Shown here piece by piece: positions 1 through 64,000 of a DNA stretch of 64,000 nucleotides. The position numbers were made by a program, and so were the translations under genes. Positions within the stretch are counted from its first letter, which is position 1. Each line of letters begins with the position of its first letter. The DNA comes from an uncultured Trueperaceae bacterium (lineage in GTDB: Bacteria > Deinococcota > Deinococci > Deinococcales > Trueperaceae), in assembly GCA_963799485.1 (NCBI GenBank), contig CAWCXJ010000007.1:160001-224000 (forward strand). The letters are read 5' to 3'. The notes beneath the pieces were generated by a model. It worked only from the letters and a program-made list of their open reading frames with translations. It did no database searches and was not told where the DNA came from.

Positions 1-705
1 TCCGGCGATGTCGGCGACGCCCGAGACGTGGTTTTGTTCGTGAAAGTCCGGCAGCCAGCCGTGAACGGGCCAGAGCGGAAGTTTTACGGCGAAGGCCAGC
101 GTAAACGCCAAAAAGAGCCAAATTTGGGTGCTTGGCGGCAGAGCTTGTGTGGCCGGCATGAGGTCGGTCAGGCGAAAGCTTGTCGCACCAGACAGCGGAC
201 GAAGCGCCAGAATTGCAACCAGCATAATGAACGACCCGGCAACCGCGTAAACGAGATACTTTACGGCGGCCTGACGGCGGCGCTCGAGCCCCCAAATCCC
301 CAGCATCAGCACGCTCGGTATCAGGGTCGCTTCCCAGAACAGGTAAAACAGCACCACGTCTTGCGCCAAGAAGATGCCGGCAAGTCCCGCCTGCATCGCC
401 AAGAGCAGTCCAAGAAAACGGTTGGTGTTCTCTTTAACCACGAAGCTCGCGTAAAACGTCGTGGGGAGCATGACGATGGCTGCAACTAAAACCAGCAACC
501 CGCCGGCCCCTACCGCTGAAAGCGAAAAGTAAACACCGAAACTGCCCAGCCACGGCGTTTCATAAGGGAGGGCTTGCGGCAGGGCAATCGCCGCGAGCAG
601 CGTAAACACCGACGTGGTGAGCGCAACCGTGCGGCCCATACCTTTGGAGACGAAAAAGAGCAAAATTGCGCCGATAAGCGGGATTAACACCGTTGCCAGC
701 GTCAT
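1..705 (-). CDS. nuoM: NADH-quinone oxidoreductase subunit M (5' part, runs off window)
   Basis: ATG at 705-703 overlaps the nuoL stop (ATGA); reads [15 protein letters not shown]..., hydrophobic; follows nuoL. Not in ORF track because truncated. Confidence 0.9.
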   Translation of the reverse strand, partial: MTLATVLIPLIGAILLFFVSKGMGRTVALTTSVFTLLAAIALPQALPYETPWLGSFGVYFSLSAVGAGGLLVLVAAIVMLPTTFYASFVVKENTNRFLGLLLAMQAGLAGIFLAQDVVLFYLFWEATLIPSVLMLGIWGLERRRQAAVKYLVYAVAGSFIMLVAILALRPLSGATSFRLTDLMPATQALPPSTQIWLFLAFTLAFAVKLPLWPVHGWLPDFHEQNHVSGVADIAG

Positions 706-2633
706 GCTGCGCCTCCGGTAAAGACAGCGACCAAAACGAGTACCGCCAGACCGACCAGCATCAGCAGCGCGTAGAGCCGGACAAAACCCGACTGAAGCTG
801 CGACACCGACTTGCCGAGTTCACCAACGCTGCTGCTCGAGCCCCCCACCCGCGTATCTAAAACCTCACGGTCGACCTCACCGAAGCCCTGCGCGAGTTCT
901 TCACCCGGACGGGTAAAGAGGGCGCGGTAAAGTGCGTCGAAGCCGAGCGCCGAAAACGACGCGGCGCGGAGACCGCCCAAAAGACCGGCGACCTGCGGCT
1001 GCTTGGCCGCCATGAAATCGGCCTTTTTGTGATAACGCAGATAGCCCAGATAAAGCCCGAGAAAAGCTGCGACTACCGAGATTAAAACGAGCAGCCATTC
1101 GACCCACAAGGCCAGGTGGCTGAAGGTAGCGGCGGTAGGGGTCTCGAGCCACGGTGCAATCAGGTTGGGAAAGGCAAACTCCGGCAAACCGATGTAGCCG
1201 GCAAAAATACTTAAAAAGGCCAAAATCAGTAGCGGTACGGTCATCACTTGCGGCGACTCGTGCAGGCGTGCCCGCGCCGCATCCGAAAACCGCTCCTCGC
1301 CGGCGAAAACCCGGTAATACCAGCGGAACATGTAAAACGCCGTCAGCACAGCAGTAAAGAGCAGAACGAGGTAGAGCCAGATATTACCGTACCCCGCAAT
1401 CAGCTCAGAGGTAAACACACGCGCCAAGATTGCATCTTTACTAAAAAAGCCCGACAGGAAAGGTACCCCTGAGATGGCCAGCACCGCAATCAGCGCAGTC
1501 GTTCCCGTAATCTTCATGTGTTTGCCGAGGCCGCCCATCTTGCGAATATCCTGTTCACCACCGAGCGCGTGAATGACCGAGCCCGACCCTAAAAAGAGCA
1601 GCGCCTTAAAGAAGGCGTGCGTCAAAACGTGAAAGATAGCGACCCAGTACGCCCCCACGCCGACCGCCGCAAACATAAAGCCGAGCTGCGAAATCGTCGA
1701 GTACGCCAGGATTTTTTTGATGTCTTGCTGCGTCAGCGCAGCGAACGCAGCGACGAGCGCGGTAATCCCCCCAACCCAGGCGACGACCGCCGAGGCGTCC
1801 GGGGTACTAGCGAAAAGTGGCGCAGTCCGGGCAATCAGGTAAACCCCGGCTGTAACCATCGTCGCGGCGTGAATGAGCGCCGAAACCGGCGTCGGCCCCG
1901 CCATTGCGTCGGGGAGCCAAGTTTGCAGCGGCAGCTGCGCCGATTTGCCGCACGCTGCAAGTAAGTAGAGCAGACCTAAAACCGTGACAACCGCCGAACC
2001 TGCCAGGAGCGGCGCGGCAGCGTTGACCTCGGCGATGTCGAGCGTTCCAAAGGTCTTGACCGTCAAGAACATACCCAGCAAAAAGCCGACGTCGCCGATG
2101 CGGTTGACGATAAACGCTTTGCGGGCAGCGTCGGCATTTTCCTTGATGGCGTACCAGAAGCCAATCAGCAGATACGAGCAGACCCCGACGCCTTCCCAAC
2201 CGATAAACATCAGAAAGAACGAGTCGGCCATGACCAGAACCAGCATTGCGGCGATAAACAGGTTGAGCGCCGAGAAGTAGCGGCTGAAGCCGGGGTCGCG
2301 GTGCATGTAGCTCGCGGAATAGACGTGAATCAGGAGCCCGACCCCGGTGATAATCAGCATCAAGGTAATGCTCAAGGGGTCGATGACGAAGCCTAAGTCG
2401 AGGCTGAACGGGCCACCCTCCAAGTACCCCCAGAGCGGAATCCGCGCTGTGCGCTCGGGGTAGGCGAAAAGTCCAAAAAAGGCCAGCACGGAGAGGACAA
2501 AGCCCGTACCGACCGCCGTTGCTGCGATGATACCCGGCAACGGTTCACGCAGACGTTTACCAAATACTCCGTTAATGAGTGCGCCTAGCAAAGCGACAAA
2601 AGGCGCAGCTGCAGCTAAGGTGACGACCGTCAT
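702..2633 (-). CDS. nuoL: NADH-quinone oxidoreductase subunit L
   Basis: [51 protein letters not shown] motifs. Confidence 0.97.
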
Positions 2634-3518: not shown

Positions 3519-3570
3519 AAAATGGGCTCCGCCGGGGAGGCGATAACGAGCATCCGAAACTCGTAACACA

Positions 3571-11484: not shown

Positions 11485-12113
11485 CGTCCCCCCTCCCCCG
11501 TCGTTTCGTGGATGTCCGGGTCGGTTTTGACCTCGGTACCGCCCGGTACCTGACTGCTGACGCCTTTGCGGGCACCGCCGCGCCAGCCCGACAACCCCGA
11601 GGCTTGCCCGCTCATCCCGGCCCGAAACGCTTCCGGGTCGAGAAAACGCCCGTCGTTAAAAAGCGTCGGCGTTTCACCCAAAGGAAAATCTTTACGGTGC
11701 GGATGCCCGTCTAGGTCTTCTGGTGTGATGAGTTTACGGAGGTCGGGGTGGCCCTCAAACTCGACGCCGAACATGTCGTAAACCTCGCGCTCCATAAAGC
11801 TCGAGCCCTGCCAAAGCCCCGTAACCGTCGGCAGCGCTTCGCCGTCGTCAACGTTCACCCGGATGAATAACCGCTCGTTATGCGCCACGCTGTAGAGGTT
11901 GTACGACACCGTAAAACGCTTGCCCTGATGCCCCGGATAGCTCAGATAATCAGTGCCGAACACGTCCGAAATCATCTCGAAGCCCTGCTTTTTCGCCTCG
12001 GCGATAGCATCCACGAGTTCGGACTTGTCTACGGTGACGCTGACCATATCCTTGAACTGCGCGGGTTTGCCGCCCCTTGCTTTGAGCTTGTCGACGGTCT
12101 GCTCTAGGGCCAT
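11481..12113 (-). CDS. nuoC: NADH-quinone oxidoreductase subunit C
   Basis: [29 protein letters not shown]. Confidence 0.96.
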
Positions 12114-13821: not shown

Positions 13822-14808
13822 TTACGAAGTCGCAAGTAGATGTTCGACGGCGGTACGTTCCTCGAGCAGCTCTTTCTCGCTCACTTTTAGCTTCTCTTGA
13901 ATAAACGGTGAAAGCTCCAAATCCCCGACCACGGCAACTCGACCCGCCTGGGTCGTAACCGGGAACGAGTAGATAATGCCTTCAGCGACGCCGTAAGCGC
14001 CCTTGCTGAGAACTGCCATGCTCGTCCATGTGCCTTCCGGGGTTCCGTGAACCCAGGTTTGCATATGGTCGATCGCTGCCGATGCTGCCGACGCCGCGCT
14101 CGAGGCTCCCCGCGCTTCGATAATTGCCGCACCCCGTTTTTGTACGGTTGGCATAAAAGTCTCACGCGTCCAGCTTTCGTCAACGACTTCGGTGGCGGCG
14201 CGGCCTGAAACCGTAGCGTGGGTCAAGTCGGGAACCTGCGTACTCGAGTGGTTGCCCCAGATAATCACACCCTGAACATCTTTGACGGCACTTTCTGTCT
14301 TCTCGGCAAGCTGCGCGGTCGCGCGGTTGTGGTCGAGCCGCGTCATCGCACTGAACTGTTCGGGTTTGAGGTCGGGTGCATTGCGCATAGCGATAAGCGC
14401 GTTTGTGTTTGCCGGATTGCCGACGACAAGGACTTTGACGTCGCGGCTCGCCACCTCGTTCAAGGCTCTCCCCTGTTTGGTAAAAATCGCACCGTTGGCA
14501 GCGAGTAAATCCCCGCGTTCCATGCCGGGGCCACGCGGTCTCGAGCCCACCAGCAGCGCGTAGTCGGCATCTTTGAAGGCGACGTTGGCATCATCTGAGG
14601 TCGTAACGCCGTGCAGTAGTGGAAAGGCACAGTCGTTGAGTTCCATTACGACGCCACCGAGTGCGCCCAGCGCAGGCGTAATCTCGAGCAGTTGCAAGAC
14701 AACGGGTTGGTCTTTGCCCAACATTTCACCTGAAGCGATACGAAACAGCAGCGAATAACCAATCTGCCCCGCCGCGCCAGTCACAGCTACTTTTACGGGT
14801 TCATTCAT
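13822..14808 (-). CDS. mdh: Malate dehydrogenase
   Basis: [34 protein letters not shown]. Confidence 0.97.
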
Positions 14809-14896
14809 AGATTTATCCTTTCAAGAATGGCATCGTAGCATCTTGAGGCGTTACAGAACCAGAGGTTTTCAAAACTCGAAACGACTTTACGCTCGA

Positions 14897-14912
14897 TGTT
14901 TCACGTGAAACA
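14897..14912. promoter_or_regulatory. parS site
   Basis: Perfect palindrome TGTTTCACGTGAAACA downstream of parB. Confidence 0.93.
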
Positions 14913-14915
14913 ACT

Positions 14916-14944
14916 TCAGTACCGTAACCTCAGTACCGTAACCT
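14916..14944. repeat. Tandem 14-bp direct repeat x2
   Basis: TCAGTACCGTAACC twice, between parS and the parB stop. Confidence 0.8.
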
Positions 14945-15770
14945 AAGCCTGATAATTGAGTAGCTCGAGCAACCGCTCCAACTCATCACGTGAGGCAAAG
15001 TGAAGTTCGATCTTGCCTTTTTTGCCCCCGGAAACACGAACTTTTGTTCCCACAGTGCGCGAGAGATTTAGCTCGAGGTCGCTATATTGGTTTTCGCTCG
15101 AGCTGCGATCAGCTTGAGCATTTTGTCCCACCGGGCGTTTGAGCCCTTCTGCTTGCCGTACCGAAAGCTGCTTTTCTAAAATCGTAGCAAGTGCCCACGT
15201 CTGATCGTCTTGCGGTTGCGCGAGAATCGCCCGCGCGTGACCGGCGCTGATTTTACCTTCGTCAAGCGCTGTTAGAGCCGCGTGGTCAAGGCGAAGCAAC
15301 CGTAAGGTGTTGGCAACTGCGCTCCGGCTCTTGCCCACCGCGTCGGCAACCGCTTCTTGCGACAAACCGAATTCTAGAAGCTGCTGGAATGCCCGCGCCT
15401 CTTCGACTGCGCTCAGGTCTTCACGCTGGACGTTTTCGATCAGGGCGATCTCGAGGGTTTCCCTGTCGCTGAGCGTTTTAACGACGACCGGCACCGTCGC
15501 TAGACCTACCTGCTGCGCGGCCCGGAAGCGCCTCTCGCCTGCAACGATTTCAAATCCGTTTTCAGCCGGACGCACGAGCAGAGGTTGTAGTACGCCTTTT
15601 TGCGCGACCGAACGTGCAAGTTCAGCGATGCCCTCCGGGTCGAGGCGTTTACGCGGCTGATAAACCGACACTGAGAGTTGCTCGAGCGGTAACTGCTCGG
15701 TACCCCGCTCTTTTTCGACTCTAGGTAAGAGCGCGTCTAAACCCCGACCCAAACTACGCTTCGCTGACAC
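14943..15770 (-). CDS. parB: Chromosome partitioning protein ParB (Spo0J)
   Basis: [31 protein letters not shown]; start set at GTG 15770 after GAGGAGG. Confidence 0.96.
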
Positions 15771-16512
15771 GTAAAATGACCTCCTCGGAGAGTTGCCGAT
15801 ACGCCTGCGCCCCGGACGACGCAGGTGCGTAGGCGTAAATGGGTTGACCGTAAGACGGGGCCTCGGCAAGGCGGACGTTACGCGGGATGACCGCCGAAAA
15901 GACGAGCGCTTCAAAATGTTTGCGGACGTTTTCTTCGACCTCTTGCGACAACCTTGTCCGACCATCGAACATCGTAAGCAAGATACCTAAGATGTTTAAG
16001 TTCGGGTTGAGCGAACCGCGCAAGCGCTCGACCGTATCCATCATACTGGCGATGCCCTCGAGCGCGTAGTATTCGGTCTGCAGTGGAATTACAAGGTGGT
16101 CGGCAGCGACGAGTGCGTTGAGTGTGAGTGCACCAAGCGAAGGCGGCGCGTCGACCACGATAAAATCGAAGTTTGGCCTAACCCCGATCAGCGCTTTGGT
16201 GAGCAGCTTCATATTGTCTGTGCTGGCGTCGAGTTCTACCGCTGCGCCGGAAAGCTCCATCGAAGCGGGCAGGACTTTGAGGTTTTCTATATCGGTATCG
16301 GTAATAGCGCGCCGCGCCGAAAGCTCGCCGACGAGAACGTCGTAGATGGTACGTTCTGCGCCCCTAACGCCGACGCCGCTGCTAGCGTTCGCTTGTGGGT
16401 CCATATCGACAAGGAGCACCCGCCGCGTCTCGGCTAGAGCGGCAGCAAGGTTGATCGCGCTTGTCGTCTTGCCGACACCGCCTTTTTGATTGATTACACC
16501 GACGATGGGCAA
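15754..16512 (-). CDS. parA: Chromosome partitioning ATPase ParA (Soj)
   Basis: [29 protein letters not shown]. Confidence 0.96.
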
Positions 16513-17081
16513 GGCCGCCCTCCTTGGAGCCGTAACGCTATGAGCTTACCATGCGTTGGCAAAGGTGACAGAAACGTCTCCAAAATCGGCCCGGTGATAG
16601 GCGTAAGCTCAGCTTGTTCGGTAGGGGAGAGGTCGCCACGCCGCGAGACGATGGTAACTGTCTCTGCGTGAAGATGCCGCGTCAGACAGTAAAGAAGCGA
16701 AAACCGCCCGACCGCCTGCGCACAAACCCAGTTGTAGGGCGTGTCTTGCAGCGCCCGCACGTCGTCGGCGACGACCGTGACATGCTCGAGCCCCAGCTGA
16801 CCGACAACCAACTTAAGAAAGCTCGCACGTTTTTGCCTTCTCTCGACCAGCGTCACCTGATGCTGCGGAAAGGCGATAGCAAGCGGAATACCCGGCAACC
16901 CGACACCCGAACCGATATCTAAAATGCGGTCGGCAGGGGAGAGGCGGGAGGAGAGGAACTCAGGGTAAGCTTGAGCCGCGAGCAACTTGGCATCGAGTTC
17001 GGCTACAGCCCGCGCCGACATCAGATCGAGCGTGTGCTGGTACCGGAGGATCAGTGCTTTGTACGCCTCGCGCTTATCCAA
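16494..17081 (-). CDS. rsmG: 16S rRNA m7G527 methyltransferase
   Basis: [16 protein letters not shown]; sits between mnmG and parA; TTG start. Confidence 0.9.
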
Positions 17082-17083
17082 AA

Positions 17084-18919
17084 CTACCTTGCTACCGCTG
17101 TTTCACGTGAAACACTTGACTGCTTACCTCTGCAATAGACGAGTAGGGCGGTAATATCGCTGTCTCTCACGCCCTGAACACGCTGGGCCGCGCCCAGGGT
17201 TGCAGGCTGAGCGCCCGTCAACGCCTGTCTACCTTCGTGCGACAAACTGGGGATGCCGTCAAACGATAAGCCGGATAAGCTGACCGTTTCGTAACCCCTA
17301 CGCGCCTCGAGTTCGCGGCGACTACGTTCAATATACGAGGCATATTTGACCTGGATTTCGACCTTCTGTTTTTCTCTAACAGACAAGCTTTGCGCCGGTA
17401 AACCGAGTTGCGTTTCCAGCTCGCGGTAGGTCATCCCCGGACGGCAGAGCACTTTGCTGGCTGTTACGCCGCCGAGCTGCACTTTACCCAAACGCTGGAT
17501 TTCGGCTTCGACTCGAGCTTGGCTCGCCTGCTTTCTCTGCAGAGATTCGCCGGACTGCAAACCCCAAGCATGACCCAGTGCCAGCAGACGGTCGTCAGCG
17601 TTGTCCTGACGGTGAAGCAAGCGGTATTCGTTACGCGATGTGAGCATTCGGTACGGCTCGTTGAGACTCCAGCGCACCAGGTCGTCGAGCATCACCCCGA
17701 TGTACCCCTGGTCGCGCCGCACGCTCACGAGCTCTTGTGCTGCCGCAAACCGCGCAGCATTCACGCCTGCAACAAGTCCCTGAGCGGCTGCCTCTTCATA
17801 ACCGCTTGTACCGTTGATCTGTCCGGCGCTAAAAAGCCCCGGCAGGACTTTCGACATGAGCGTGACGCTGAGCTGTGAGGCGTCGAGCGCGTCGTATTCG
17901 ACCGCATAGGCGTAGCGCTGAATCTGGGCATAGGTGAAACCCGGCAGCGTACGAATCATCTCGTCTTGTAAAACAGGCGGCATCGAACTCGAGAACCCCT
18001 GTAAATACACTTCACTCGTCCCACTGCCGTCGGGCTCGACAAATAACAGGTGTCGGTCTTTGTCCGAAAAACGGACGATTTTGTCTTCAATCGAAGGGCA
18101 GTAACGCGGCCCTTGCCCGTGAATCACGCCGCCGTACATCGCTGAGTGCTCGAGGTTTGCTTGAATCAAGGTGTGCGTTTCCGGCGTCGTGTGCGTCAAC
18201 CAGGTCGGGGAACTCGCGGCGTGCTTACCGGGAGTACCGCTAAACGACGCGGGCGGGTCGTCGGCGGGAACGACCTCGAGCCGAGAAAAATCAACCGAAT
18301 CCGCACGAATGCGTGGCGGTGTGCCGGTCTTGAAACGCTGTAAAAGGTGTCCTGTCGCCCGCAAACTGTGCGACAAATGCCGTGCCGGGGCCTCACCCTG
18401 CCGCCCCGCCGGACGCTGCTGTTTACCGTACCAGACCACACCTGCCAAAAACGTGCCGGTACAGAGAACGACACTCGGCGCACGCAACGTGCGACCATCG
18501 GTAAATGAAACACCGCGCAGTACGCCCGCATCCTCGCTAAGAGCAGCGACCTCGCCCAAGACTAGCGTAATGCCGGACGTTTGTACGAGCAGTTTTTGCG
18601 CCGCCGCCGCGTAACCGTCGCGTTCGTTTTGTACCCGTAGCGACTGCACCGCCGGGCCTTTGCTGGCATTGAGGGTGCGGGCGTGAATCGCCGTCTCATC
18701 GGCTAGCTGACCCATCACCCCGCCGAGGGCGTGAAGCTCGAAGACCATCTGCGACTTGCCGGGGCCGCCAATCGCCGGATTGCACGGCATCAAACCGATC
18801 TTGTCGGGGTTAGGGAGGCAAAGCGCAACTGCCGAGCCGAGCCGAGCCGCAGCGGAGGCCGCCTCGATTCCGGCGTGCCCGCCGCCGATTACGATTACGT
18901 CGAAAGTAGAACGCGTCAT
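17084..18919 (-). CDS. mnmG: tRNA uridine-5-carboxymethylaminomethyl modification enzyme
   Basis: VIGGGHAGIEA, CNPAIGG, GPRYCPSIEDK, AGQINGTSGYEEAAAQG; start ATG 18919 or GTG 18922. Confidence 0.96.
   Translation of the reverse strand: MTRSTFDVIVIGGGHAGIEAASAAARLGSAVALCLPNPDKIGLMPCNPAIGGPGKSQMVFELHALGGVMGQLADETAIHARTLNASKGPAVQSLRVQNERDGYAAAAQKLLVQTSGITLVLGEVAALSEDAGVLRGVSFTDGRTLRAPSVVLCTGTFLAGVVWYGKQQRPAGRQGEAPARHLSHSLRATGHLLQRFKTGTPPRIRADSVDFSRLEVVPADDPPASFSGTPGKHAASSPTWLTHTTPETHTLIQANLEHSAMYGGVIHGQGPRYCPSIEDKIVRFSDKDRHLLFVEPDGSGTSEVYLQGFSSSMPPVLQDEMIRTLPGFTYAQIQRYAYAVEYDALDASQLSVTLMSKVLPGLFSAGQINGTSGYEEAAAQGLVAGVNAARFAAAQELVSVRRDQGYIGVMLDDLVRWSLNEPYRMLTSRNEYRLLHRQDNADDRLLALGHAWGLQSGESLQRKQASQARVEAEIQRLGKVQLGGVTASKVLCRPGMTYRELETQLGLPAQSLSVREKQKVEIQVKYASYIERSRRELEARRGYETVSLSGLSFDGIPSLSHEGRQALTGAQPATLGAAQRVQGVRDSDITALLVYCRGKQSSVSRETAVAR
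17099..17114. promoter_or_regulatory. parS site inside 3' end of mnmG
   Basis: Perfect TGTTTCACGTGAAACA, encoding VSRET. Confidence 0.92.
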
Positions 18920-19119
18920 CACCCTACACTCTATAAGGTCGGCGGAGGTTTTGCGGTCGCCCCGAGTCCCGGGCTGAAGAGCGCCTACAAGGTATTGGTT
19001 TTTTCGCAAACAGCCAATGCCAACGTGGCGGGCGCAGATTTGTTAGACTAGCGCCCTATCTCCCGCTGGCCCTGTAAATACGATAACAAGCTGCCGGGGC
19101 GTACAGGGAAAAGGACGCG

Positions 19120-20451
19120 ATGAGGCAAGAAAATGCTATCTGGCAGGACATCCTAGAGTATGTACAGACCCAGATTCCCGAGGTCGAGTTTCGCACCTGG
19201 TTCAAGCAGGTACGCCCGCTAGGAATCGACGACGGCATCTTCATGATCGGGGTACCGCATTCGTTCGCGCGGGAATGGCTTAAGAACCACTATGCCCCGG
19301 TACTCGAGCACGCCCTTAAAGACCTCGGGGCGGCGTCCCCACGGGTCGGCTTTCAGGTCGTTCACTTTCCCAGTTCCGAGCAACCCGACATCTTTCAGCC
19401 GAGCGCACAAACTAGCGCTACGCCTGCGGTCAACCGTCCACGGCTTAACCCCAAATATATCTTTTCCAACTTTGTCGTCGGACAAAATAACAATTTGGCG
19501 AGCGCGGCGGCCCTTGCCGTCGCCGAAGCGCCCGGACGCGCCTACAACCCGCTCTTTATCTACGGCGACTCGGGGCTCGGCAAAACCCACCTGATGCACG
19601 CAGTCGGGCACGCGGTTGCCGAGCGGTTGCCGAACCTGCTGATCGAGTACGTCACGACCGAAGCATTTACCAACGACACCATCAACGCCATCCGTGAGGA
19701 CAAGATGGTGGCGTTTCGTGACCGCTACCGCAGTATCGACCTGCTGCTCGTCGACGACGTACAGTTTATCGCGGGTAAAGAGCGCACACAAGAAGAGTTT
19801 TTTCACACCTTTAACGCGCTTTACGAATCGGGCAAACAGATTATCGTTTCGTCTGACCGCCCGCCCAAAGATATTCCGACGCTCGAGAACCGCCTCCGTA
19901 CCCGTTTCGAATGGGGGCTGATTACCGACATTCAAGCACCTGAACTCGAGACGCGTATCGCTATCTTGAAGATGAACGCCGAGTACCGGGGCGTTAAAAT
20001 TCCCCCGGAAGTCATCGACTATATCGCCCGTCAAGTCACCTCGAATATCCGGGAACTCGAGGGGGCGTTGGTGCGCGTCATTTTGTACACCAGCATGAAC
20101 CAGATTGAACTAAACCGGCAAACGGTCGCCGCTGCCCTTTCAGACGTTTACGCACCGAGTGAGCTGAACCTGACGATGGATGAGATTCTCGACGCGACCG
20201 CGTTCGCCTTCGAGGTCGAAGCAGGCGATTTACGCTCGAAAGGGCGACGGCACGAACTCGTAATTCCGCGGCAGGTAGCAATGTACCTGATGCGTGAGTT
20301 TACCACCCACTCATATCCAGAAATCGGTCAGTTTTTTAGTGGTCGCGACCATTCGACGGTTGTTTACGCCGTGCAAAAAGTTACCGAACAACTTTCTAAA
20401 GACCGCGACCTCGAGGAACGTATCCAGACGGTTAAAGGTGCCTTGTTGTGA
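19120..20451 (+). CDS. dnaA: Chromosomal replication initiator DnaA
   Basis: [39 protein letters not shown]. Confidence 0.98.
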
Positions 20452-20788
20452 CAAAAAACTTTCTCATAACGTCTATTTTTACTCATTTTTCATATATTTC
20501 ACTCACGAATAATTGTGGATAACCCTGTGGATAAGCTGTGGATAAGCTGTGGATAAGCTGTGGATAAATCCAGCTTTTTATCAGCCTGTGGATAGCTGTG
20601 GATAACTTCGGTACTTATCCACAGGTAAGGGCGAGTTATCCACAAAGTTATCCACAGGTACTTCGCCGTGCTGAACAGGCCAAATGGCAGTTATCCACAC
20701 TATCCACAGCCCCTACTATAGAGAGTTTTTCTTTTCAACCTGTGGAGATTTCAAAGTCATCCCCCGAACGCCTTAAGGGAGTTTTCTC
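20452..20788. other. Replication origin oriC
   Basis: 10 perfect DnaA boxes (TGTGGATAA at 20514, 20526, 20537, 20548, 20559, 20597; TTATCCACA at 20615, 20636, 20648, 20691), 1-mismatch boxes at 20587 and 20700, AT-rich tract 20452-20513, located between dnaA and dnaN. Confidence 0.95.
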
Positions 20789-21874
20789 ATGATCGCACAC
20801 GTCTCAAGAAAAAAACTAGCCGATGCACTTGGCAGTGTCGAACGTATCGTGCCAAGTCGAAGTAGCAACCCCAGTTTGAGTTTGGTCAAGCTTACGTTAG
20901 GTCAGGGTCTACTTACCTTGAGCGGAAGCAACCTCGATATCGATATCGAGGCTTCTTTAGACGTGGATACTAAAGACGAAGGAACTTGGGCACTTCCGGC
21001 GCAGGTTTTTAGCCAAGTTGTCCGGGCGCTGCCGGGTGAACTCGTCGAGTTGTCGTTTGAAGCAGCCGAACTCGAGCTTCAAGCCGGGTCTTACGCGACC
21101 AAACTGCAACTCGTCGAAGCGGCGCTGCCGTCTTTGACGTTTCCAGCAAGCTACAGTGGCAGCTTTTCCGGTGACCGGCTGGCGACTGCCCTGACGCACG
21201 TACGTTACGCCGCGGCGGTCGCCGAGTATCAGGCCATCTTTCGGGGGGTACGGCTCGAGTTCGATGACCGCCATATTCGGGCGGTTGCGACCGACGGTTT
21301 CAGGCTCGCGTACTACCATATCGACGATGCTGCTGGTTTAAGCGGTGAGGTCGTGTTGCCTGCACGCAGCGTCGACGAACTTGCCAAGGTGCTCACCACC
21401 GAAGCGGCGAAGCTCGCGCTCTCAGAAGGTCAGCTCTCGCTTGCAACCGGCCCTTACAAGCTCAATCTCAAACTGATGGAAGGCGCGTTTCCCGACTATC
21501 AGCGGGTAATTCCCAGCGAGTTTCCGGTCAGCGTCGTTGTCAGTGCTAAAGAGCTGCTCGAAGGGGTGCAGCGCGTGGCGGTGATGGCCGACAGGACGGC
21601 GAACAACCGCGTTGACCTGTTTATCCGGGGTGGTGCTATCCAAGTCACTGCCGAAGGCGCTTACGGGCGCTCTCAGGAGGCACTGGCGGTCGCGCAAGAA
21701 GGCAGCGAGTCGGAAATTGCCCTGGCTTACAACGCCGACTATCTTTTGAGTGCGCTCAGACCGGTCGCAGGCGACGTGCGCTTCTCGTTTTCCGGGCCGA
21801 CCAGTCCGAGTGTTCTCTCGAGCCTGCAAGACCCCAGCTACCTGGCGATGGTCGTGCCGCTCCGCACCGGCTGA
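20789..21874 (+). CDS. dnaN: DNA polymerase III beta clamp
   Basis: VATDGFRLA, GAFPDYQRVIP, MVVPLR; follows dnaA. Confidence 0.96.
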   Translation: MIAHVSRKKLADALGSVERIVPSRSSNPSLSLVKLTLGQGLLTLSGSNLDIDIEASLDVDTKDEGTWALPAQVFSQVVRALPGELVELSFEAAELELQAGSYATKLQLVEAALPSLTFPASYSGSFSGDRLATALTHVRYAAAVAEYQAIFRGVRLEFDDRHIRAVATDGFRLAYYHIDDAAGLSGEVVLPARSVDELAKVLTTEAAKLALSEGQLSLATGPYKLNLKLMEGAFPDYQRVIPSEFPVSVVVSAKELLEGVQRVAVMADRTANNRVDLFIRGGAIQVTAEGAYGRSQEALAVAQEGSESEIALAYNADYLLSALRPVAGDVRFSFSGPTSPSVLSSLQDPSYLAMVVPLRTG

Positions 21875-21970
21875 TACTGCTGCACACCGGTCGGAACTTT
21901 CTGGAGGCAGCTATCAAGTCATCGGGTTAAGGTAGAGGAAGTGCGTCATTTATGCAGAGGTCAGAAGTAG

Positions 21971-23292
<1,322 letters not shown>

Positions 23293-23293
<1 letters not shown>

Positions 23294-24750: not shown

Positions 24751-24760
24751 CGAAAACGTA

Positions 24761-24788
24761 AAAATCCCTCACAAACGTGGGGGATTTT
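24761..24788. terminator. Bidirectional intrinsic terminator between pyk and rplI
   Basis: AAAATCCCTCAC-AAAC-GTGGGGGATTTT. Confidence 0.8.
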
Positions 24789-24809
24789 ATTTTGCCGACG
24801 TGTAAGCCT

Positions 24810-33733: not shown

Positions 33734-33920
33734 CCTGAAGCGCACTGATTCGGGTTTGGTTGCAAAGGTGCTACGAAGCAAGCATTAAAGAGCAAGCATA
33801 ATGAAAACGGCGTAGGCTCGAGTTCTACGCCGTTCGTTTTGAGCAGTACAGACTTTGAGCCATACGAATATCGTAAGCTGCACGGTCACGCCGTAAAACC
33901 GGGTCGTTTACGGTGAAGTT

Positions 33921-35960: not shown

Positions 35961-36018
35961 ACGGGGCCGATTTGCGATTTCTGGCATGTGTTTCGCCGCT
36001 AGTCGTTAAGATAAAAGG

Positions 36019-38337: not shown

Positions 38338-38338
38338 C

Positions 38339-41071
38339 GTGAAAGTCCGAGTTGCCTCCGCCGGAACCGGTAAAACGACGAGTTTAGTAAGGCGTTACCT
38401 CGAGCTGACCCAAGCCGGCGTCCCGCTCCGCCGAATTGCCGGGGTGACGTTTACGAACGCCGCCGCCGCCGAGTTGCGGCAGCGCGTCGGAGCCGGAGTG
38501 CGCGAGGCACTCGCTACGGACAGCTACCTCGACCTGAGTTTTACGGCGGACGACAAGCCGAGGTTGGCGGCTGCCGAACGCGAACTCGGCGGCGCGACCT
38601 TAAACACCATTCACGGCTTTATGGGCGGGGCGCTCCGTTTGACCGCGCCGCTGCTGGGTCTAGACCCCGACTTTAGCGTTTTGGGCGAGTGGGAAGGCAC
38701 CGCATTGTTCGAGGAGGAGTTGAAAACGCTCCTCTACCTCGCTGCAAGTCCACAGCATGGGCTTTATAGCACTGTGCAACGAGCAGGTCGAGATGCCTAT
38801 GAGTTGACGCTTAAACTCTTTCGCTCACGCTCACTTGCAGAGCAGTACAGCGCCGATAAAGCCAACGCTGAAGAGGTCGCGGTCGTCGCTCTGTTCGACG
38901 CGGTGTACGCCCGTTACCGGGTACGGCTGGGGGCGAAACTCCTCACCCCATCCGAGGTCGAGCGGCGGGCGCTGACCCTGATTCGGCATCCGGAAGCCTT
39001 GAAACGCTTGACGAGCCGCTATCAGGTTTTACTCGTAGACGAGTTTCAAGATGTCAACCCGCTGCAAGGTGCGTTTTTCCGGGCGCTCGAGCACGGCGGC
39101 CTGCAAACCGAAGTCGTCGGCGACCCCAAACAATCCATCTACGGCTTTCGTCACGCGGATGTCGAGGTATTCCGGGCGGCGCTTGCGACCGGCGAGGTGC
39201 AACCGCCGCTGGACGAAACGCGCCGTCACGCCGTCGTAATCAACCGGTTCTTAAACCACCTGACGCGCAGTTTTGCCGAACGGGAGTGGGGGTTTTCCGC
39301 ACTCGAGGCTCCCGAAGTCACCCCCGTCGGCCCACAAGGGGAGAAAACCGGGCGCGTCGAACTGCACTGGGTCACGGGGTCGGTGCCGGTCGGCGAGTTG
39401 CGGGCGTATGAGGCGCAGGTGCTGGCCTCACGTCTTGCCGACTTGAGTAGAGATTACGCGCCGCACGAGATGGCCGTTTTGGCCAAATCGCACGCGGGGC
39501 TCGGGCTTATCGAGACGGCGCTCCGTGAGATGGGTTTGCCGAGCGTCTTGCTGCAAGGGCGCGGCTACTACGAACGCCGCGAGATTCGTGACCTCTACCA
39601 CGCGCTGCAAGTGGGACTCGAGCCGAGCGGTTACAGCCTCGCAGTCTGGCTCAGAAGCCCGTTTGCCGGGTTGACGATGCCTCAGATTGACGACGTGATG
39701 GGGGCCGAAAGGCCGCTCGAGCGGCTCGAGCTGGACTTTCCCGAAACATTCGCGCGGCTGGGGCGCATCCGTGAAGCCGTCCGGACGCCGCCGCTCACCG
39801 CCCTCAAAACCCTGATTCGGGAACCGTTTTTGGGCGGACAACGTTATGTGGACTTTTTAGAACCACGCGCACGCGAAAATGTAGACGCCCTGTTATTTAC
39901 CTTTGCCGGTAGGCCGCCGCAAGAAGTTGGGGTGCTTTTGGAGCGCCTGGAGCGCCTCAGCCGTCAGACCGATGCGGGCGACGTGCCGCAGCGCGGGAGC
40001 GGCGTCAAGCTGCTGACGGTTCACAGCGCCAAGGGGCTCGAGTGGCCCGTCGTCGCCGTGTTCGATACCGGGCGGATGAACCGCGTCCAGAGTGAAACGC
40101 TCTACGTTGCTCCGGCAGGGGGCCGGGTTGCGCTTAGGGGCAGCGCGGCTTACGACGAGGTGAAGGGGCAGCTTACTGAACGCGAAGCGGGGGAGAGCTA
40201 CCGACTCCTCTACGTCGCCGCGTCGCGGGCCAGAGACGTGTTGCTTTTGTCCGGCAGCGTCAAGGACGAGCGCCCTTCAGGGTGGGCCAAAGCCCTATCC
40301 GACATCGGTTTTGGCCCGGACGCGCGGCCTTATACGCGCCCCGATTTCGTCCTTAAAGCTTGGCCCGTACAGGCGACTGCGCCTGTGCAGGGCGTAACGG
40401 CTGAGGTCTCAGGGTTACAGGTTGCGCCCTGGACACGCCGAACGTTTCCTCATTTACGGCACGCGCCGGTGTCGTCGCCGTCTTCACTCAAACGCGACGC
40501 CGAAACACACGAACCGCTGCCCGTCACCGACCCCGATGAGGGCGAACGCCTGCCCGGACGGGCGCGCACGGTTGGAACGCTCGTTCACTACGCGATTTCA
40601 CAAAACTGGTCGGCAGAGAACCCGGTTCACCTGGAGAACTTGCGGGCGCAAGAGGTGATGTTCCCTTTTAGCGAAGCTGAAAAAAGTGACGTCGTTGCCG
40701 AGGTCGCCGGACTGCTCGCTACTTACGAAAAGATGCTCGGTCATGAGCTTCCGGCGCTTGCCGAGCGCAGCAAAGACCACGCCGAGGTGCCGCTGGCCTT
40801 GCCGCACGGCGGGACGGTCTGGCAGGGTATCATCGACCGGTTTTACTGTGCGGACGGGGTATGGTACTTAGAAGACTACAAAACCGACCGCGAAGTCGTG
40901 CCGGAACACTACACCTTTCAGCTGGCCTTGTACGCTCGAGTCTTGCACCAAGTCAGGGGCATTACGCCGGTAGTGCAGCTCGTTTATCTGCGTGCAGAGC
41001 GGGTCGTTACGGTGCCGTTAGGGGTGCTCGAGGCTGCCTTCGACGAAACGCTCGCGGTTCCCGTCGGCTAG
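38339..41071 (+). CDS. addA: AddA-like UvrD helicase with C-terminal PD-(D/E)xK nuclease
   Basis: ASAGTGKT, VDEFQD, VGDPKQSIYGFR, TVHSAKGLEW, YVAASRA, GIIDR..EDYKT..QLALY; start GTG 38339. Confidence 0.85.
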   Translation: MKVRVASAGTGKTTSLVRRYLELTQAGVPLRRIAGVTFTNAAAAELRQRVGAGVREALATDSYLDLSFTADDKPRLAAAERELGGATLNTIHGFMGGALRLTAPLLGLDPDFSVLGEWEGTALFEEELKTLLYLAASPQHGLYSTVQRAGRDAYELTLKLFRSRSLAEQYSADKANAEEVAVVALFDAVYARYRVRLGAKLLTPSEVERRALTLIRHPEALKRLTSRYQVLLVDEFQDVNPLQGAFFRALEHGGLQTEVVGDPKQSIYGFRHADVEVFRAALATGEVQPPLDETRRHAVVINRFLNHLTRSFAEREWGFSALEAPEVTPVGPQGEKTGRVELHWVTGSVPVGELRAYEAQVLASRLADLSRDYAPHEMAVLAKSHAGLGLIETALREMGLPSVLLQGRGYYERREIRDLYHALQVGLEPSGYSLAVWLRSPFAGLTMPQIDDVMGAERPLERLELDFPETFARLGRIREAVRTPPLTALKTLIREPFLGGQRYVDFLEPRARENVDALLFTFAGRPPQEVGVLLERLERLSRQTDAGDVPQRGSGVKLLTVHSAKGLEWPVVAVFDTGRMNRVQSETLYVAPAGGRVALRGSAAYDEVKGQLTEREAGESYRLLYVAASRARDVLLLSGSVKDERPSGWAKALSDIGFGPDARPYTRPDFVLKAWPVQATAPVQGVTAEVSGLQVAPWTRRTFPHLRHAPVSSPSSLKRDAETHEPLPVTDPDEGERLPGRARTVGTLVHYAISQNWSAENPVHLENLRAQEVMFPFSEAEKSDVVAEVAGLLATYEKMLGHELPALAERSKDHAEVPLALPHGGTVWQGIIDRFYCADGVWYLEDYKTDREVVPEHYTFQLALYARVLHQVRGITPVVQLVYLRAERVVTVPLGVLEAAFDETLAVPVG

Positions 41072-42902: not shown

Positions 42903-43208
42903 ATGTTTGCAGTTATTCAAAGTGGGGGCAAGCAGTACAACGTCGCTGAAGGCGATGTGGTGCGGCTCGAGACCCTCGACGCAGAACCCGGTGAAACCGT
43001 CAAGCTAGACGTGATGATGTTGAGCGGGGATGAAGTCAAGGTCGGCGCCCCCTTAGTCGAAGGGGCAAGCGTCAAAGCCGAGGTCGTCGGTCACGGGCGC
43101 GGCAAAAAGCTCTATATCTACAAGTTCAAAGCCAAGTCGAACTACCGCCGTAAAACGGGGCACCGTCAGGGTTACACCGAAGTCCGCATCACCGCAATCG
43201 AGAGCTAG
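42903..43208 (+). CDS. rplU: 50S ribosomal protein L21
   Basis: MFAVIQSGGKQY, GHRQ. Confidence 0.98.
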   Translation: MFAVIQSGGKQYNVAEGDVVRLETLDAEPGETVKLDVMMLSGDEVKVGAPLVEGASVKAEVVGHGRGKKLYIYKFKAKSNYRRKTGHRQGYTEVRITAIES

Positions 43209-49380: not shown

Positions 49381-49510
49381 GCTTTTCGAGCAACTTCGGG
49401 ATGCATATACATGTTCGTGTGAATAACGGAGAGACTTCTAAACGGCGCTCTTATCGAATTTCCAGGGGCCGTAAAACCGTATAACGTCTGCAAACGCGAA
49501 GTTTTTTACA

Positions 49511-53515: not shown

Positions 53516-53664
53516 CTTACGACACCGTAAAAGTCGGAGAAAACCCTATTCAACGTGGACTGGACTTTTCAAGTTCTAACACTTACAACGCCGTAAAGGT
53601 CGGAGAAAAGTGACGGGTTTTACGGCGCTGCACGGCTCAAGCCCTATCCAACGTCGGCTCGGCT
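53516..53664. repeat. Degenerate direct duplication in convergent intergenic region
   Basis: CTTACGACACCGTAAAAGTCGGAGAAAA (53516) / CTTACAACGCCGTAAAGGTCGGAGAAAA (53582); CCCTATTCAACGT (53544) / CCCTATCCAACGT (53642). Confidence 0.75.
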
Positions 53665-59402: not shown

Positions 59403-59410
59403 ACAGCCCC

Positions 59411-60037: not shown

Positions 60038-60061
60038 CAAACGACGGCGGGAATAGCGCCT

Positions 60062-61891: not shown

Positions 61892-61956
61892 TGTGCCTCC
61901 TTCGGCTCGGCCTCAGCAGCGGAGCCAACCCTACCTAAATCGGTAGATTGTAACAT

Positions 61957-64000
61957 CTAGGCTGCCGGGCTCAGATTGGCGTACTTGATTAAAAGTCGTT
62001 TCGGCCCGACTTCTTTGAAGACCACCGTAATTTCGGCGCGCGGCCCATCACCTGAAACGCCGACAACCGTCCCGGTGCCGAATTTAGGGTGCGTGACCTT
62101 TTCGCCGCCCCGGTAGCTCTCGCCGCCAGCTTTGCTGTCGCCATTCTTGGACGAGGACGATGGACTCGAGCTCCCTGTACTCGGCGGTGCCCAGACTGCG
62201 CGGCTGTACTTGTTCAGCTTCGCTTCGCTCAGGTCTTGCCCGAAGATGTCGATCTCTTGCAGCATGGTTTTCGGGACTTCTTCTAAAAAGCGGCTGGGGC
62301 GGGCGAACTCGGTACGCCCAAAGCTCATTCTGGATTCGCAGTTGACCAAAAAGAGCTGCTCCTGGGCGCGGGTAATGCCGACGTACAACAGGCGGCGCTC
62401 TTCTTCGATCTCTTGCAGCGAGCCGGTCGAGGAGCGGTGCGGGATGAGATTTTCTTCTAATCCGACTAAAAAGACGACGGGAAACTCGAGCCCCTTGGCG
62501 TTATGCAGCGTCATCAGGGTCACCGCTTCTTCAGGCACGTCGCCCTTGTTGACCGCTTTTACGGCGCGGTCGTCTACACTCGCCATGAGGGACGCTTCAT
62601 CTAAAAACTCGCCAATCGAGCCGCCCGTCTCCTCCTGCCATTCGGTCACGGCGCTGATAAGTTCGTCCAAGTTTTCAATCCGGCCCTGCGCCTCGAACGA
62701 TTTCTCGTCTTTCAGAGACTGCATATACCCTGACTGATCCATCACCGCTTTAAGAAACTGTGCGGCGGGCAGCGTGTCGGCGGCCTCTTTGAGGTCGTCC
62801 ATCAGTTCGGCAAACTCCGCAATGCGTTTTACGGCGGGTGTGCCCCGTAAAACCTCGTCGCTACGGCGCACCGCGTCGGAAAAACGGGCCGAGTGCTTCG
62901 CTGCCCACGCCGTGAGGTTGTCCTCGCTGGTTTTGCCGATACCGCGTTTGGGCCGGTTCAAAACGCGCCGCCACGCGATGTCGTCGGCTGGGTTGAGCGC
63001 CGCCCGCGCATACGAAAGCATGTCTTTAACCTCGCGCCGTTCGTAAAAACCGACGCCGCCGACGATTTTGGCGGGGATTCCGGCGCGGCGCAGCGACTCT
63101 TCCATCACCCGCGACTGCGAGTTGGTGCGGTACAAGACCGCGAAGCTGTTGGGCGTCAGTTTGGCTTGCAACTGCTCGATCTGCCGCGCGACGAAGTCGG
63201 CCTCGGCGCGGTGATCCGTGGCGCGGTAGAGTTTGACGCTTTCGCCTGCACCTTTTACCGGCTTGAGGTTTTTTTCCAGGCGACCTTCGTTGGCGGTGAT
63301 AATCGTGTTGGCAAGTTCTAGCACGCTGCTGACCGAGCGGTAGTTGAGCTCGAGCCGATAAATCTTCGCCTCCGGGTAATCATCCCGGAAGTCCAGAATG
63401 TTGCGCACATCGGCCCCGCGAAACGCGTAGATGCTCTGATCGGGGTCGCCGACGACCATCAGGTTGCCGTAAGAACTCGCTAACTGTTTGGTCAGCCGGT
63501 ACTGCGCGGTGTTGGTATCCTGATACTCGTCTACATGGATAAAGACGGCGCGTTGCTGAACTTTTTGCAAAACGTCCGGGAAGGCGTCGAACAGCTCGAC
63601 GGTGCGGCCCAAAATGTCGTTGAAGTCTACGGCGTTGGCCTGCCGCAAACGTGAACCGTAACGTTCAAACGCCTCGGCGATGAGGTCTAAGGGCATCCCG
63701 GCGACCATCCCGCCCAGCACCCGTTCACCCTCACGCATCAGCTCGGCGGGCGTCCAGAGGTTCGATTTGGCGCGGTCTATAAGCGACCGTAAAACCCTCG
63801 GGTTCGCGTCGCCCAGACCTGAAACGCGCTCCAGAATCTCTTTAAGCACCTCTAACTGATCGGTGTCGTCGTAGATAGCAAAGCCGTTCTCGAGGCCGAT
63901 CAGCGGCCCGTAGTTTCGCAACACCCGCAAACACGCCGAGTGAAAGGTGCTAACCCAGAGGTCTTTGGCTTTTTCACCCATGAGGTGACGCACACGCTCT
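61957..64000 (-). CDS. pcrA: PcrA/UvrD ATP-dependent DNA helicase (5' end outside window)
   Basis: STFHS, VDEYQDTN, VGDPDQSIYAFRGA, TLHNAKGLEF, EERRLLYVGITRA, C-terminal HPKFG domain. Confidence 0.93.
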   Translation of the reverse strand, partial: ERVRHLMGEKAKDLWVSTFHSACLRVLRNYGPLIGLENGFAIYDDTDQLEVLKEILERVSGLGDANPRVLRSLIDRAKSNLWTPAELMREGERVLGGMVAGMPLDLIAEAFERYGSRLRQANAVDFNDILGRTVELFDAFPDVLQKVQQRAVFIHVDEYQDTNTAQYRLTKQLASSYGNLMVVGDPDQSIYAFRGADVRNILDFRDDYPEAKIYRLELNYRSVSSVLELANTIITANEGRLEKNLKPVKGAGESVKLYRATDHRAEADFVARQIEQLQAKLTPNSFAVLYRTNSQSRVMEESLRRAGIPAKIVGGVGFYERREVKDMLSYARAALNPADDIAWRRVLNRPKRGIGKTSEDNLTAWAAKHSARFSDAVRRSDEVLRGTPAVKRIAEFAELMDDLKEAADTLPAAQFLKAVMDQSGYMQSLKDEKSFEAQGRIENLDELISAVTEWQEETGGSIGEFLDEASLMASVDDRAVKAVNKGDVPEEAVTLMTLHNAKGLEFPVVFLVGLEENLIPHRSSTGSLQEIEEERRLLYVGITRAQEQLFLVNCESRMSFGRTEFARPSRFLEEVPKTMLQEIDIFGQDLSEAKLNKYSRAVWAPPSTGSSSPSSSSKNGDSKAGGESYRGGEKVTHPKFGTGTVVGVSGDGPRAEITVVFKEVGPKRLLIKYANLSPAA

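Follow-up and report, generated by a model that had tools for sequence, protein, structure and literature searches.

TTACGG, a lineage-specific, hyper-abundant non-palindromic word in three related species of Trueperaceae, and a tentative uptake-like reading of its excess

A 64,000-nt stretch of the genome of an uncultured Trueperaceae bacterium (contig C7 of genome G000, positions 160001-224000; hereafter the window, in whose own coordinates its features are given) carries many copies of the non-palindromic 9-mer GTTTTACGG. We found that this 9-mer is a slice of a genome-wide, lineage-specific and hyper-abundant non-palindromic word with the core TTACGG, for which TTTTACGGCG is the best long form. 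The excess is a property of the DNA and not of codons, peptides, repeats or replication strand: a strand-symmetric force makes and maintains TTTACGG-like words in three related species, both within genes and in the spacers, with enough strength to accompany amino-acid changes. We concluded that TTACGG is a real, lineage-specific iterated word read whole by some factor. As to its function, we have modest confidence in an uptake-like drive.

In the window, GTTTTACGG is present in 21 exact copies, as compared to a mean of 0.73 in dinucleotide-preserving shuffles (n = 100), none of which reached 21 copies (0/100; largest shuffled count 3). A sequence-only reading of the window had listed 20 copies; all of them were found, and one more at 33229 (+) had been overlooked. 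The same reading had extended 11 copies to GGTTTTACGG, and the flanks indeed gave 11/21 copies preceded by G; its estimate of about 50 TTTACGG against about 6 predicted became 58 against 9.6 expected upon recount. We then counted k-mers on both strands of the G000 genome (3.66 Mb, 59% GC) under order-1 and order-3 Markov models. The excess, which the sequence-only reading had allowed might be confined to the window, is genome-wide, with 517 copies of GTTTTACGG (260 plus, 257 minus). TTACGG has 5624 copies, with observed/expected ratios (O/E) of 2.9 (order 1) and 2.5 (order 3), and TTTACGG has 3274 copies, or about one per 1.1 kb, with O/E of 5.9 and 3.4, respectively. The longer forms TTTACGGCG (1113 copies; O/E 15 and 6.7) and TTTTACGGCG (540 copies; O/E 26 and 9.8) are enriched further, and TTTTACGGC, at 832 copies, is commoner than GTTTTACGG. 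The 9-mer proposed as the unit was therefore not borne out; it is a slice of a softer, shorter word. With A, C, G or T as the 5' base of NTTTTACGG, the counts were 183 (ATTTTACGG), 429 (CTTTTACGG), 517 (GTTTTACGG) and 418 (TTTTTACGG), and thus the 5' G is uninformative and not part of the word. On its 5' side TTACGG prefers T (58% at -1, 33% at -2), and on its 3' side C at +1 (51%) followed by G at +2 (46%); further out only the codon period remains, so that the information fades within 2 bases of the hexamer. TTACGG ranks second among the over-represented hexamers of G000, the first being the palindrome CTCGAG.

The excess does not derive from codon usage. Genes were called by our own crude method, which combines open reading frames (ORFs) with a codon score; it gave 2943 genes and 80.6% coding DNA and misses some genes, among them an AddB-like ORF at 36019-38337 that overlaps its neighbour. 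Synonymous codons were shuffled within genes (20 rounds). The enrichment of GTTTTACGG, which the sequence-only reading had considered might vanish under a codon-preserving shuffle, survived it, with 64 +/- 7 copies after shuffling and 402 observed in coding sequences (CDS), a 6.3x difference. The same comparison gave 688 vs 2601 for TTTACGG (3.8x) and 38 vs 433 for TTTTACGGCG (11.5x), and permutation of whole codons left 33 GTTTTACGG, 498 TTTACGG and 17 TTTTACGGCG. The encoded peptides are themselves raised, the synonymous-shuffle null being 1.4-2.2x the codon-permutation null. All five usable frames are populated by TTTACGG, with 551, 656 and 488 copies in the sense frames and 517 and 384 in the stop-free antisense frames. 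Outside the gene calls lie 640 copies (19.5%), in a genome whose non-genic share is 19.4%. In short spacers (n = 1409, 30-400 bp, 223 kb in total), TTTACGG is at least as enriched, with 1.30 copies per kb and an O/E of 7.0 under the order-1 model and 4.0 under the order-3 model. A codon or dipeptide artefact was rejected, since the excess outlasts the synonymous shuffle and fills five frames and the spacers. We also rejected a dispersed repeat of the repetitive extragenic palindrome (REP) or miniature inverted-repeat transposable element (MITE) type, because the flanks of the 21 window copies are unrelated and ~80% of the copies lie within gene calls.

Nor is the word oriented with replication. 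With the two arms of C7 assigned from oriC alone, 269/520 TTTACGG copies on this contig are on the leading strand (52%; 269 vs 251 lagging, p 0.46), as are 475/888 TTACGG copies (53.5%), and the intergenic copies divide 86 vs 79. The slight leading surplus fits the gene-strand bias (56% of coding bases are leading) together with the forbidden antisense frame. The lack of replichore polarity reported by the sequence-only reading, on which it had set Chi and KOPS aside, was thus confirmed, and its split of GTTTTACGG to the right of oriC (10 plus, 8 minus) was recounted as 11 plus and 8 minus, again unpolarised. A polar motif of the type of FtsK-orienting polar sequences (KOPS) or architecture-imparting sequences (AIMS) was rejected, as neither TTTACGG nor TTACGG shows an origin-to-terminus orientation on C7. 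No better skewed candidate for Chi or KOPS was detected on C7, where no word with at least 60 copies exceeded a leading-strand share of 0.72. As a side observation, G000 is nearly without strand asymmetry: the leading-strand GC skew is 0.01, and the most skewed 7-mers on C7 reach 0.60-0.69. The weakly skewed words on C7 include some that contain TTACG, e.g. TTACGCG (97 leading, 44 lagging), which is borderline given the number of words tested.

We examined the bases of the word one at a time at CDS places that carry six of the seven TTTACGG bases and miss one at a third codon position, using the genome-wide codon usage as the reference. At all seven positions, in sense and antisense frames, the motif base beats every synonymous alternative, by 1.5- to >100-fold; the weakest preference, 1.5, is that of ACG over ACC after TTT. 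This mutual dependence of seven bases does not arise from nearest-neighbour mutation bias. Transversion alternatives lose as heavily as transition alternatives, which counts against Vsr-type repair, whose effect would be restricted to transitions. Across the genome, none of the words that differ from TTACGG by one base is depleted (TTATGG, TTACAG and TTACGA have O/E of 1.0-1.3). A whole-word, DNA-level force very probably exists, and the joint preference points to a reader with a footprint of ~7-10 bp. The force would be either a drive, in the sense of biased transmission, or weak selection that acts at thousands of sites on behalf of a sequence reader.

We searched 31 genomes for GTTTTACGG and for its reversed control, namely six species of the genus and 25 genomes of 19 other genera. 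The counts in the six species were as follows.
G000: GTTTTACGG 517, reversed control 64.
G005: GTTTTACGG 490, reversed control 65.
G001: GTTTTACGG 210, reversed control 63.
G003: GTTTTACGG 57, reversed control 37.
G002: GTTTTACGG 25, reversed control 15.
G004: GTTTTACGG 38, reversed control 43.
Most of the 25 genomes from other genera showed no excess over the reversed control, and a few showed a small one (G024, 16/4; G023, 9/0). The order-1 O/E of TTACGG was 2.90 in G000, 2.94 in the G005 chromosome, 1.95 in G001 and 1.00 in G002. The grading G000 = G005 > G001 follows relatedness to G000; G001 and G005 are equal in GC (56.6 and 56.5%), and base composition therefore does not explain the difference between them.

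To follow single sites between species, chromosome stretches of three relatives were aligned to G000 by blastn; at 73-81% identity such alignments can be locally wrong.
G005: 400 kb sample, 279 kb aligned to G000, 81% mean identity.
G001: 400 kb sample, 270 kb aligned to G000, 79% mean identity.
G002: 360 kb sample, 205 kb aligned to G000, 73% mean identity.
The fraction of TTACGG sites found intact was compared with that of pooled control words, which have the same composition as the motif but not the same coding context.
G000 to G005: 240/488 (49%) intact, pooled controls 35%; 13/176 control words do as well.
G005 to G000: 240/470 (51%) intact, pooled controls 33%.
G000 to G001: 26% intact, pooled controls 28%.
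G001 to G000: 40% intact, pooled controls 28%.
G000 to G002: 5% intact, pooled controls 18%.
Conservation of 5% towards G002 indicates that most G000 sites are new relative to that species, and the differences between the two lie mainly at the three A/T bases. At synonymous third positions within the G000 sites, G005 has the same base in 566/747 cases (75.8%), as compared to 60.7% for the same codons elsewhere, in a test where five control words spread from 9 points below to 11 points above their own expectations. No such surplus was seen with G001 (59.1% vs 57.5%) or G002 (40.5% vs 42.5%).

Some gains of the word can be read base by base. Three copies found only in G000, at 35231, 35261 and 35459, involve codon changes of 2-3 bases that alter amino acids: GCC to AAA (Ala to Lys), CAA to GGT (Gln to Gly) and TTT-AGC to TAC-GGC (Phe-Ser to Tyr-Gly), respectively. 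At 63787, three bases have changed, while G005 and G001 are still identical to each other. In all aligned DNA, three or more base differences from G005 were counted at 47/153 changed TTTACGG sites (controls, 221/1105), and 77/124 changed CDS sites have an amino-acid difference in the overlapped codons, vs 319/816 for the controls (Fisher p 2e-6). Three-way parsimony with G000, G005 and G001 for a spectrum of gains and losses was dropped, as only 11/62 apparent G000 gains had G005 = G001 at ~20% divergence.

The word is unevenly distributed within genomes. TTTACGG occurs at 0.84-1.10 per kb on seven of the eight G000 contigs larger than 200 kb (0.66 on the eighth, C9) and at 0.25-0.27 per kb on the small contigs C2 and C3. 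Likewise, TTACGG has an O/E of 1.38 on five small G005 contigs (C1-C5), vs 2.94 on the G005 chromosome; these small contigs scarcely align to G000 (43 kb of 251 kb). The small contigs are lower in GC, yet they have fewer copies of the word. TTTACGG-free gaps of at least 8 kb number 22 vs 2.5 expected. Judging from GC, contig size and poor alignment, the word-poor contigs and islands are probably foreign. One island, a 24-kb segment at G000:C4:217359-241697, has 66% GC and lacks TTTACGG, whereas CTCGAG is as dense there as usual (2.1 per kb); its appearance is that of DNA brought in from a high-GC relative in which CTCGAG, but not TTACGG, is abundant.

The features of the window are as follows.
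81..89 (+): GTTTTACGG copy between gene calls.
11909..11917 (-): GTTTTACGG copy on the sense strand of the gene for the NADH dehydrogenase 30-kDa subunit (11481-12113, -).
14799..24914: 10-kb stretch free of TTTACGG, spanning oriC, dnaA and dnaN.
25187..25195 (+): GTTTTACGG copy, antisense within the ribosomal protein L9 gene.
33229..33237 (+): GTTTTACGG copy, antisense within the PNP-oxidase gene.
33891..33899 (-): GTTTTACGG copy in the spacer upstream of the DUF255 gene, with a plus-strand TTTACGG 16 bp off (33907).
33921..35960 (+): DUF255/thioredoxin-like gene (679 aa) with 11 TTTACGG, six of them GTTTTACGG (34283+, 35199+, 35231-, 35261+, 35459+ and 35614-).
36536..36544 (-): GTTTTACGG copy in the AddB-like ORF (36019-38337).
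36665..36673 (+): GTTTTACGG copy in the AddB-like ORF, also present in G005.
38249..38257 (+): GTTTTACGG copy in the overlap of the AddB-like and AddA-like ORFs.
38538..38546 (+): GTTTTACGG copy in the AddA-like gene (UvrD helicase plus PD-(D/E)XK nuclease).
43148..43156 (-): GTTTTACGG copy, antisense to the ribosomal protein L21 gene and unchanged in G005, G001 and G002.
49469..49477 (-): GTTTTACGG copy in the spacer adjoining a second DnaA-box cluster.
53617..53625 (+): GTTTTACGG copy in a spacer, with a minus-strand TTTACGG at 53591.
62826..62853: two facing GTTTTACGG copies (62826+, 62845-) in the UvrD/PcrA-like gene, both also in G005.
63787..63795 (-): GTTTTACGG copy in the UvrD/PcrA-like gene, present in G000 only; G005 and G001 both have GTCTTGCGT.
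83..63793: span of the 58 TTTACGG copies (34 plus, 24 minus).

Of all 2943 gene calls, the DUF255/thioredoxin-like gene is the richest in TTTACGG (11 in 2 kb, Poisson p 3e-6), and the 5-kb bin at 35001-40000 holds 9 GTTTTACGG copies, the genome maximum, the next bin having 5. The window looks striking because it contains this gene. The cluster that the sequence-only reading placed at 33.9-38.6 kb and assigned to yyaL, addB and addA is therefore genuine in position (12/21 copies fall in 33.2-38.6 kb), but it lies mostly in the DUF255/thioredoxin-like gene. The addA-like and addB-like ORFs have ~3 TTTACGG each, near the average, so that among the window genes there is no local sign of a bias to genome-maintenance genes; the three copies ascribed to pcrA were located in the UvrD/PcrA-like gene. 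The oriC itself consists of 12 DnaA boxes at 20514-20708 between dnaA and dnaN, ten of them exact TTATCCACA and two with one mismatch. A second DnaA-box cluster, with 7 boxes (5 exact), lies 29 kb away in the spacer at 49175-49426, beside a GTTTTACGG copy.

We rank an uptake-signal-like drive first as the best single reading of these data, although only as a tentative one. The word would build up by molecular drive coupled to DNA exchange: fragments of relatives' DNA that bear it would be preferentially taken up or recombined, alleles gaining it would spread and alleles losing it would be replaced, as for the DNA uptake sequence (DUS) of Neisseriaceae and the uptake signal sequence (USS) of Pasteurellaceae. 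The system would be young and weak, having arisen within the genus and reached its greatest strength in G000 and G005, with half of that in G001, and the word would still be short of the sharp, long and hundreds-fold-enriched state of the classical uptake sequences. This reading is ranked first because the set of properties matches that of uptake sequences in coding regions. Like DUS and USS, TTTACGG is short, non-palindromic, equal on both strands and present about once per kb; it uses all available reading frames with its encoded peptides up 1.4-2.2x, it turns over at amino-acid positions that vary among species, it is scarce in apparently foreign DNA, and it is lineage-specific in the manner of a dialect. 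In the part of their article considered here, Findlay and Redfield described uptake-sequence tripeptides as about doubled, with sites at poorly conserved residues and none in genes without homologs (PMC2817400); lineage specificity and other properties were compared also with the available portion of PMC3630211. Transmission bias explains multi-base, protein-changing gains more easily than does weak selection per site.

Several observations weigh against an uptake-type drive. The excess is 3-26x and not hundreds-fold, the core is a soft one of 6-7 bases and not a fixed 9-12-mer, and no 12-mer containing the word exceeds ~50 copies; DUS and USS number about a thousand or more, as compared to 540 for the best 10-mer, TTTTACGGCG. 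The excess is limited to 3/6 species of one genus and does not extend to a family, the phylum being Deinococcota according to the sequence-only reading. The density in spacers is only ~1.5x that in genes, and the metagene profile of the word is flat over gene starts, gene ends and stop codons, with no concentration at gene ends, whereas about half of the DUS and USS sites are in terminators according to the available part of a preprint (bioRxiv 10.1101/2025.10.24.684340). The sites are clumped and not evenly spread. The close inverted pairs noted by the sequence-only reading are not a genome-wide property: neighbouring TTACGG copies less than 40 bp apart are direct in 242 cases and inverted in 127. 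The motif-poor oriC stretch of the window (14799-24914), one of the 22 gaps, is native, well-aligned DNA for which a foreign origin is no explanation; the aligned stretch has 4 copies in G005 and 0 in G001. Finally, where Neisseria has ComP as its receptor, no receptor candidate emerged from the five genomes searched, all of which contain comEA-comEC and dprA, enriched and non-enriched alike. ComEA as a clade-specific receptor was rejected, given that near-identical sequences occur in species with and without the excess. The comEC-like gene of G000 (C7:108-893) reaches the contig end, with an open frame of 541 aa vs 746-819 aa in relatives. In summary of the three options offered by the sequence-only reading, the uptake signal acquired several matching properties while several features of DUS and USS were lacking, the nucleoid-protein site is weighed below, and the methylation-linked motif was left unsupported.

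To our knowledge, uptake sequences, Chi and the highly iterated palindrome HIP1 are the few known cases of a short word written thousands of times into a bacterial genome. These words are old and saturated, so how such words arise remains hard to see. TTACGG is young, with hexamer excesses of 2.9x, 2.9x and 1.95x in three related species and none in a fourth sampled relative, and its gains, some of them protein-changing, are visible base by base. If the word acts in DNA uptake or recombination, sequence-specific self-recognition would be extended to a new phylum and molecular drive could be watched at its start; if it is a binding site or a methylation-linked word, it would still be a strong lead to a sequence reader. 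It is possible, though we would not call it probable, that TTACGG is the first self-DNA recognition word for natural transformation outside Proteobacteria, caught early in its build-up. In that case a word that arose in one genus, at a density near one per kb in two species and with roughly half of their excess in a third, would offer a natural time series for the birth of uptake sequences, with protein sequences already reshaped. In a bolder variant, TTACGG and the older palindrome CTCGAG would be two layers of one self-tagging system for DNA exchange in a radiation- and desiccation-adapted lineage. A search of a limited literature collection returned no paper linking Truepera with an uptake sequence.

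Other readers were weighed against the uptake-type drive. An unpolarised Chi-like or self-marker word, ranked second, is in our estimate unlikely. TTTACGG(CG) would be read in single-stranded DNA by an AddAB-type helicase-nuclease encoded in the window and would switch the enzyme from degradation to RecA loading, thereby protecting and marking self DNA; if desiccation or radiation, and not fork collapse, caused most breaks, the word would serve equally well in either orientation and no skew need evolve. The AddA-like gene and the adjoining AddB-like ORF are present, the word is scarce on small contigs and in islands, and words in G000 show next to no strand asymmetry. In length (6-8 bases) and excess (3-6x) the word is comparable to known Chi sites, and its ACGG end loosely resembles the GCGG in which AddAB Chi sequences from Firmicutes terminate. 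Lineages differ in their Chi sequences, and the known Chi sites have a significant leading-strand skew that persists when GC skew is taken into account (PMC3384302, in the section available); that skew is absent here (52-53.5% on C7). In addition, the AddAB region is found also in relatives without the excess (G002, G003 and G004), no comparable non-palindromic word stands out in the G002 sample, and the AddB-like ORF (772 aa) has only weak, sub-threshold Pfam matches. Selection per Chi site is weak, and the multi-base, amino-acid-changing gains fit transmission bias better. A binding site for an abundant nucleoid-associated protein, new or respecified in the ancestor of G000, G005 and G001, has in our view a small chance of being the explanation; weak selection at thousands of sites would keep the word frequent. 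The joint seven-base preference implies a protein-sized footprint, the sites are conserved above controls, and the uneven regional density is common to G000 and G005, with the oriC region poor in both, as would fit a protein excluded from or needless at that place. A study of HIP1 argues for a role in nucleoid structure from similar evidence, as far as its available text goes (PMC5861425). On the other side, no candidate protein was found, close TTACGG pairs have no preferred spacing or phasing beyond the codon period, and the sparseness of the word on co-resident small contigs would have to be explained in another way.

We give the same small chance to a HIP1-like origin, in which sequence-specific DNA modification and biased repair or recombination would iterate the word, as proposed for the cyanobacterial palindrome GCGATCGC and orphan methyltransferases. 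TTACGG resembles HIP1 in being hyper-abundant within and between genes and conserved above expectation, and a stronger iterated palindrome, CTCGAG, in the same genomes indicates that such forces act in the lineage. The enriched species (G000, G001 and G005) carry many more DNA methyltransferase genes than G002 and G003, and G000 possesses two enzymes of classes that read non-palindromic sites, one an MmeI-family type IIG enzyme and the other a type III Mod. Over-representation at the DNA level irrespective of frame is also what Vsr/Dcm-type repair produces, as with CCWGG in E. coli. However, TTACGG is not a palindrome, its excess is 2.5-26x as compared to 15-300x for HIP1, and neither of the two candidate methyltransferases tested is present intact in all three enriched species; the HIP1 range and the HIP1 conservation pattern are those in the available part of PMC5861425. 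Vsr (PF03852) had no match in the five genomes searched (G000, G001, G002, G003 and G005), there is no depleted neighbour or deamination word, and transversion and transition alternatives are disfavoured to the same degree. A Vsr/C5-methylase origin was rejected on these grounds and because the C5-methyltransferases lie at unrelated places. HIP1 has been linked to methyltransferases (PMC4390886, as far as available), and in a preprint, in the portion at hand, it raises natural transformation of a cyanobacterium in a methylation-dependent manner, with uptake-like and Chi-like roles discussed (bioRxiv 10.1101/2024.09.10.611283); the uptake, Chi-like and HIP1-like readings may therefore not be exclusive. 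The last alternative, a word without any reader, is very unlikely. It would be a by-product of overlapping compositional pressures (a preference for T-runs, strong effects of codon-pair context and marked avoidance of palindromes of the restriction type) in a genome fallen from high to ~59% GC. Context effects in G000 are extreme, with NNT-TTA codon pairs at 4-6x and TTT-AAA at 0.01 of expectation; TTT and AAA make up 62 and 61% of their codon families despite 59% GC, many hexamers are avoided, the T-rich 5' side of the word is in keeping with the general liking for T-runs, and the excess is seen only in the three low-GC species sampled (56-59% GC vs 67.8% in G002). Yet 2.5x (hexamer) to 10x (decamer) remains after the order-3 Markov model and 3.8-11x after the synonymous shuffle, and each of the seven positions depends on the other six, more than a context of 1-2 bases can produce. 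G001 and G005 are alike in GC but differ in the O/E of TTACGG (1.95 vs 2.94), and the small contigs are lower in GC yet poorer in copies. TTACGG is also the sole non-palindrome among the top 18 hexamers raised in G000 and G005 over G001 without a G001-specific depletion. Compensation for the avoidance of CGTACG, an avoidance that is stronger in G000 and G005, was rejected, since TTACGG shows no preference for a preceding C (14%).

The modification genes of G000 were inspected further. C5-methyltransferases were found in the three enriched species only, among the genomes searched, and in G000 they lie on the small contigs C2 and C3. The other systems of G000 are as follows.
G000:C5:165411-168350: MmeI-family type IIG enzyme (979 aa), whose own gene carries 9 TTTACGG.
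G000:C4:100470-110583: type III Mod/Res pair next to a DrmD-like SNF2 helicase.
G000:C7:472389-479062: complete type I system.
Weak N6_Mtase hits were also obtained. No close counterpart of the MmeI-family enzyme was found in G001-G005 (best match 31-42% identity over parts), and none of the type III Mod in G005; G001 has only a copy of the latter recovered as two pieces, one of them with a stop codon. A shared methyltransferase for a non-palindromic site was rejected for these two G000 candidates, which are not common and intact in G005 and G001. A C5 cytosine methyltransferase gene of G005 (locus L089, G005:C8:2486910-2487809) is located beside a stretch syntenic with the window at ~33.9 kb; the gene itself falls in a segment that G000 lacks.

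CTCGAG is an older, broader, HIP1-like iterated palindrome, and it is closer to HIP1 than TTACGG is. It is the most over-represented word of G000, with 7252 sites, an order-1 O/E of 5.9 and an O/E of 8.4 in short spacers. CTC-GAG accounts for 4813/9004 Leu-Glu codon pairs, and CTC-GAA is at 0.14 of expectation. The density of CTCGAG is near normal on small contigs and, in the window, higher than that of TTTACGG; its sites are conserved above expectation in comparisons with G005 and G001. Many genomes across the family and order contain the decamer GGCTCGAGCC at 100-600 sites, whereas some have about 0-6. A search of the same limited literature collection returned no paper joining CTCGAG over-representation with Deinococcus.

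Other palindromes are heavily avoided in G000, with order-1 O/E of 0.03 for TTTAAA, 0.07 for GGCGCC, 0.08 for GTTAAC and CGGCCG, 0.09 for GGATCC and GCATGC, and ~0.1 for GGWCC words; the codon pair TTT-AAA occurs 4 times vs 397 expected. The avoidance profile of G000 and G005 differs from that of G001, e.g. AGCGCT at 1.04 and 1.10 vs 0.11. Codon usage is odd for a genome of 59% GC, the preference for TTT (Phe) and AAA (Lys) standing beside GAC, AAC, CAC and TAC at 74-81%. T-ending codons before TTA or TTG are 3-6x as frequent as expected, which amounts to T-runs across codon borders.

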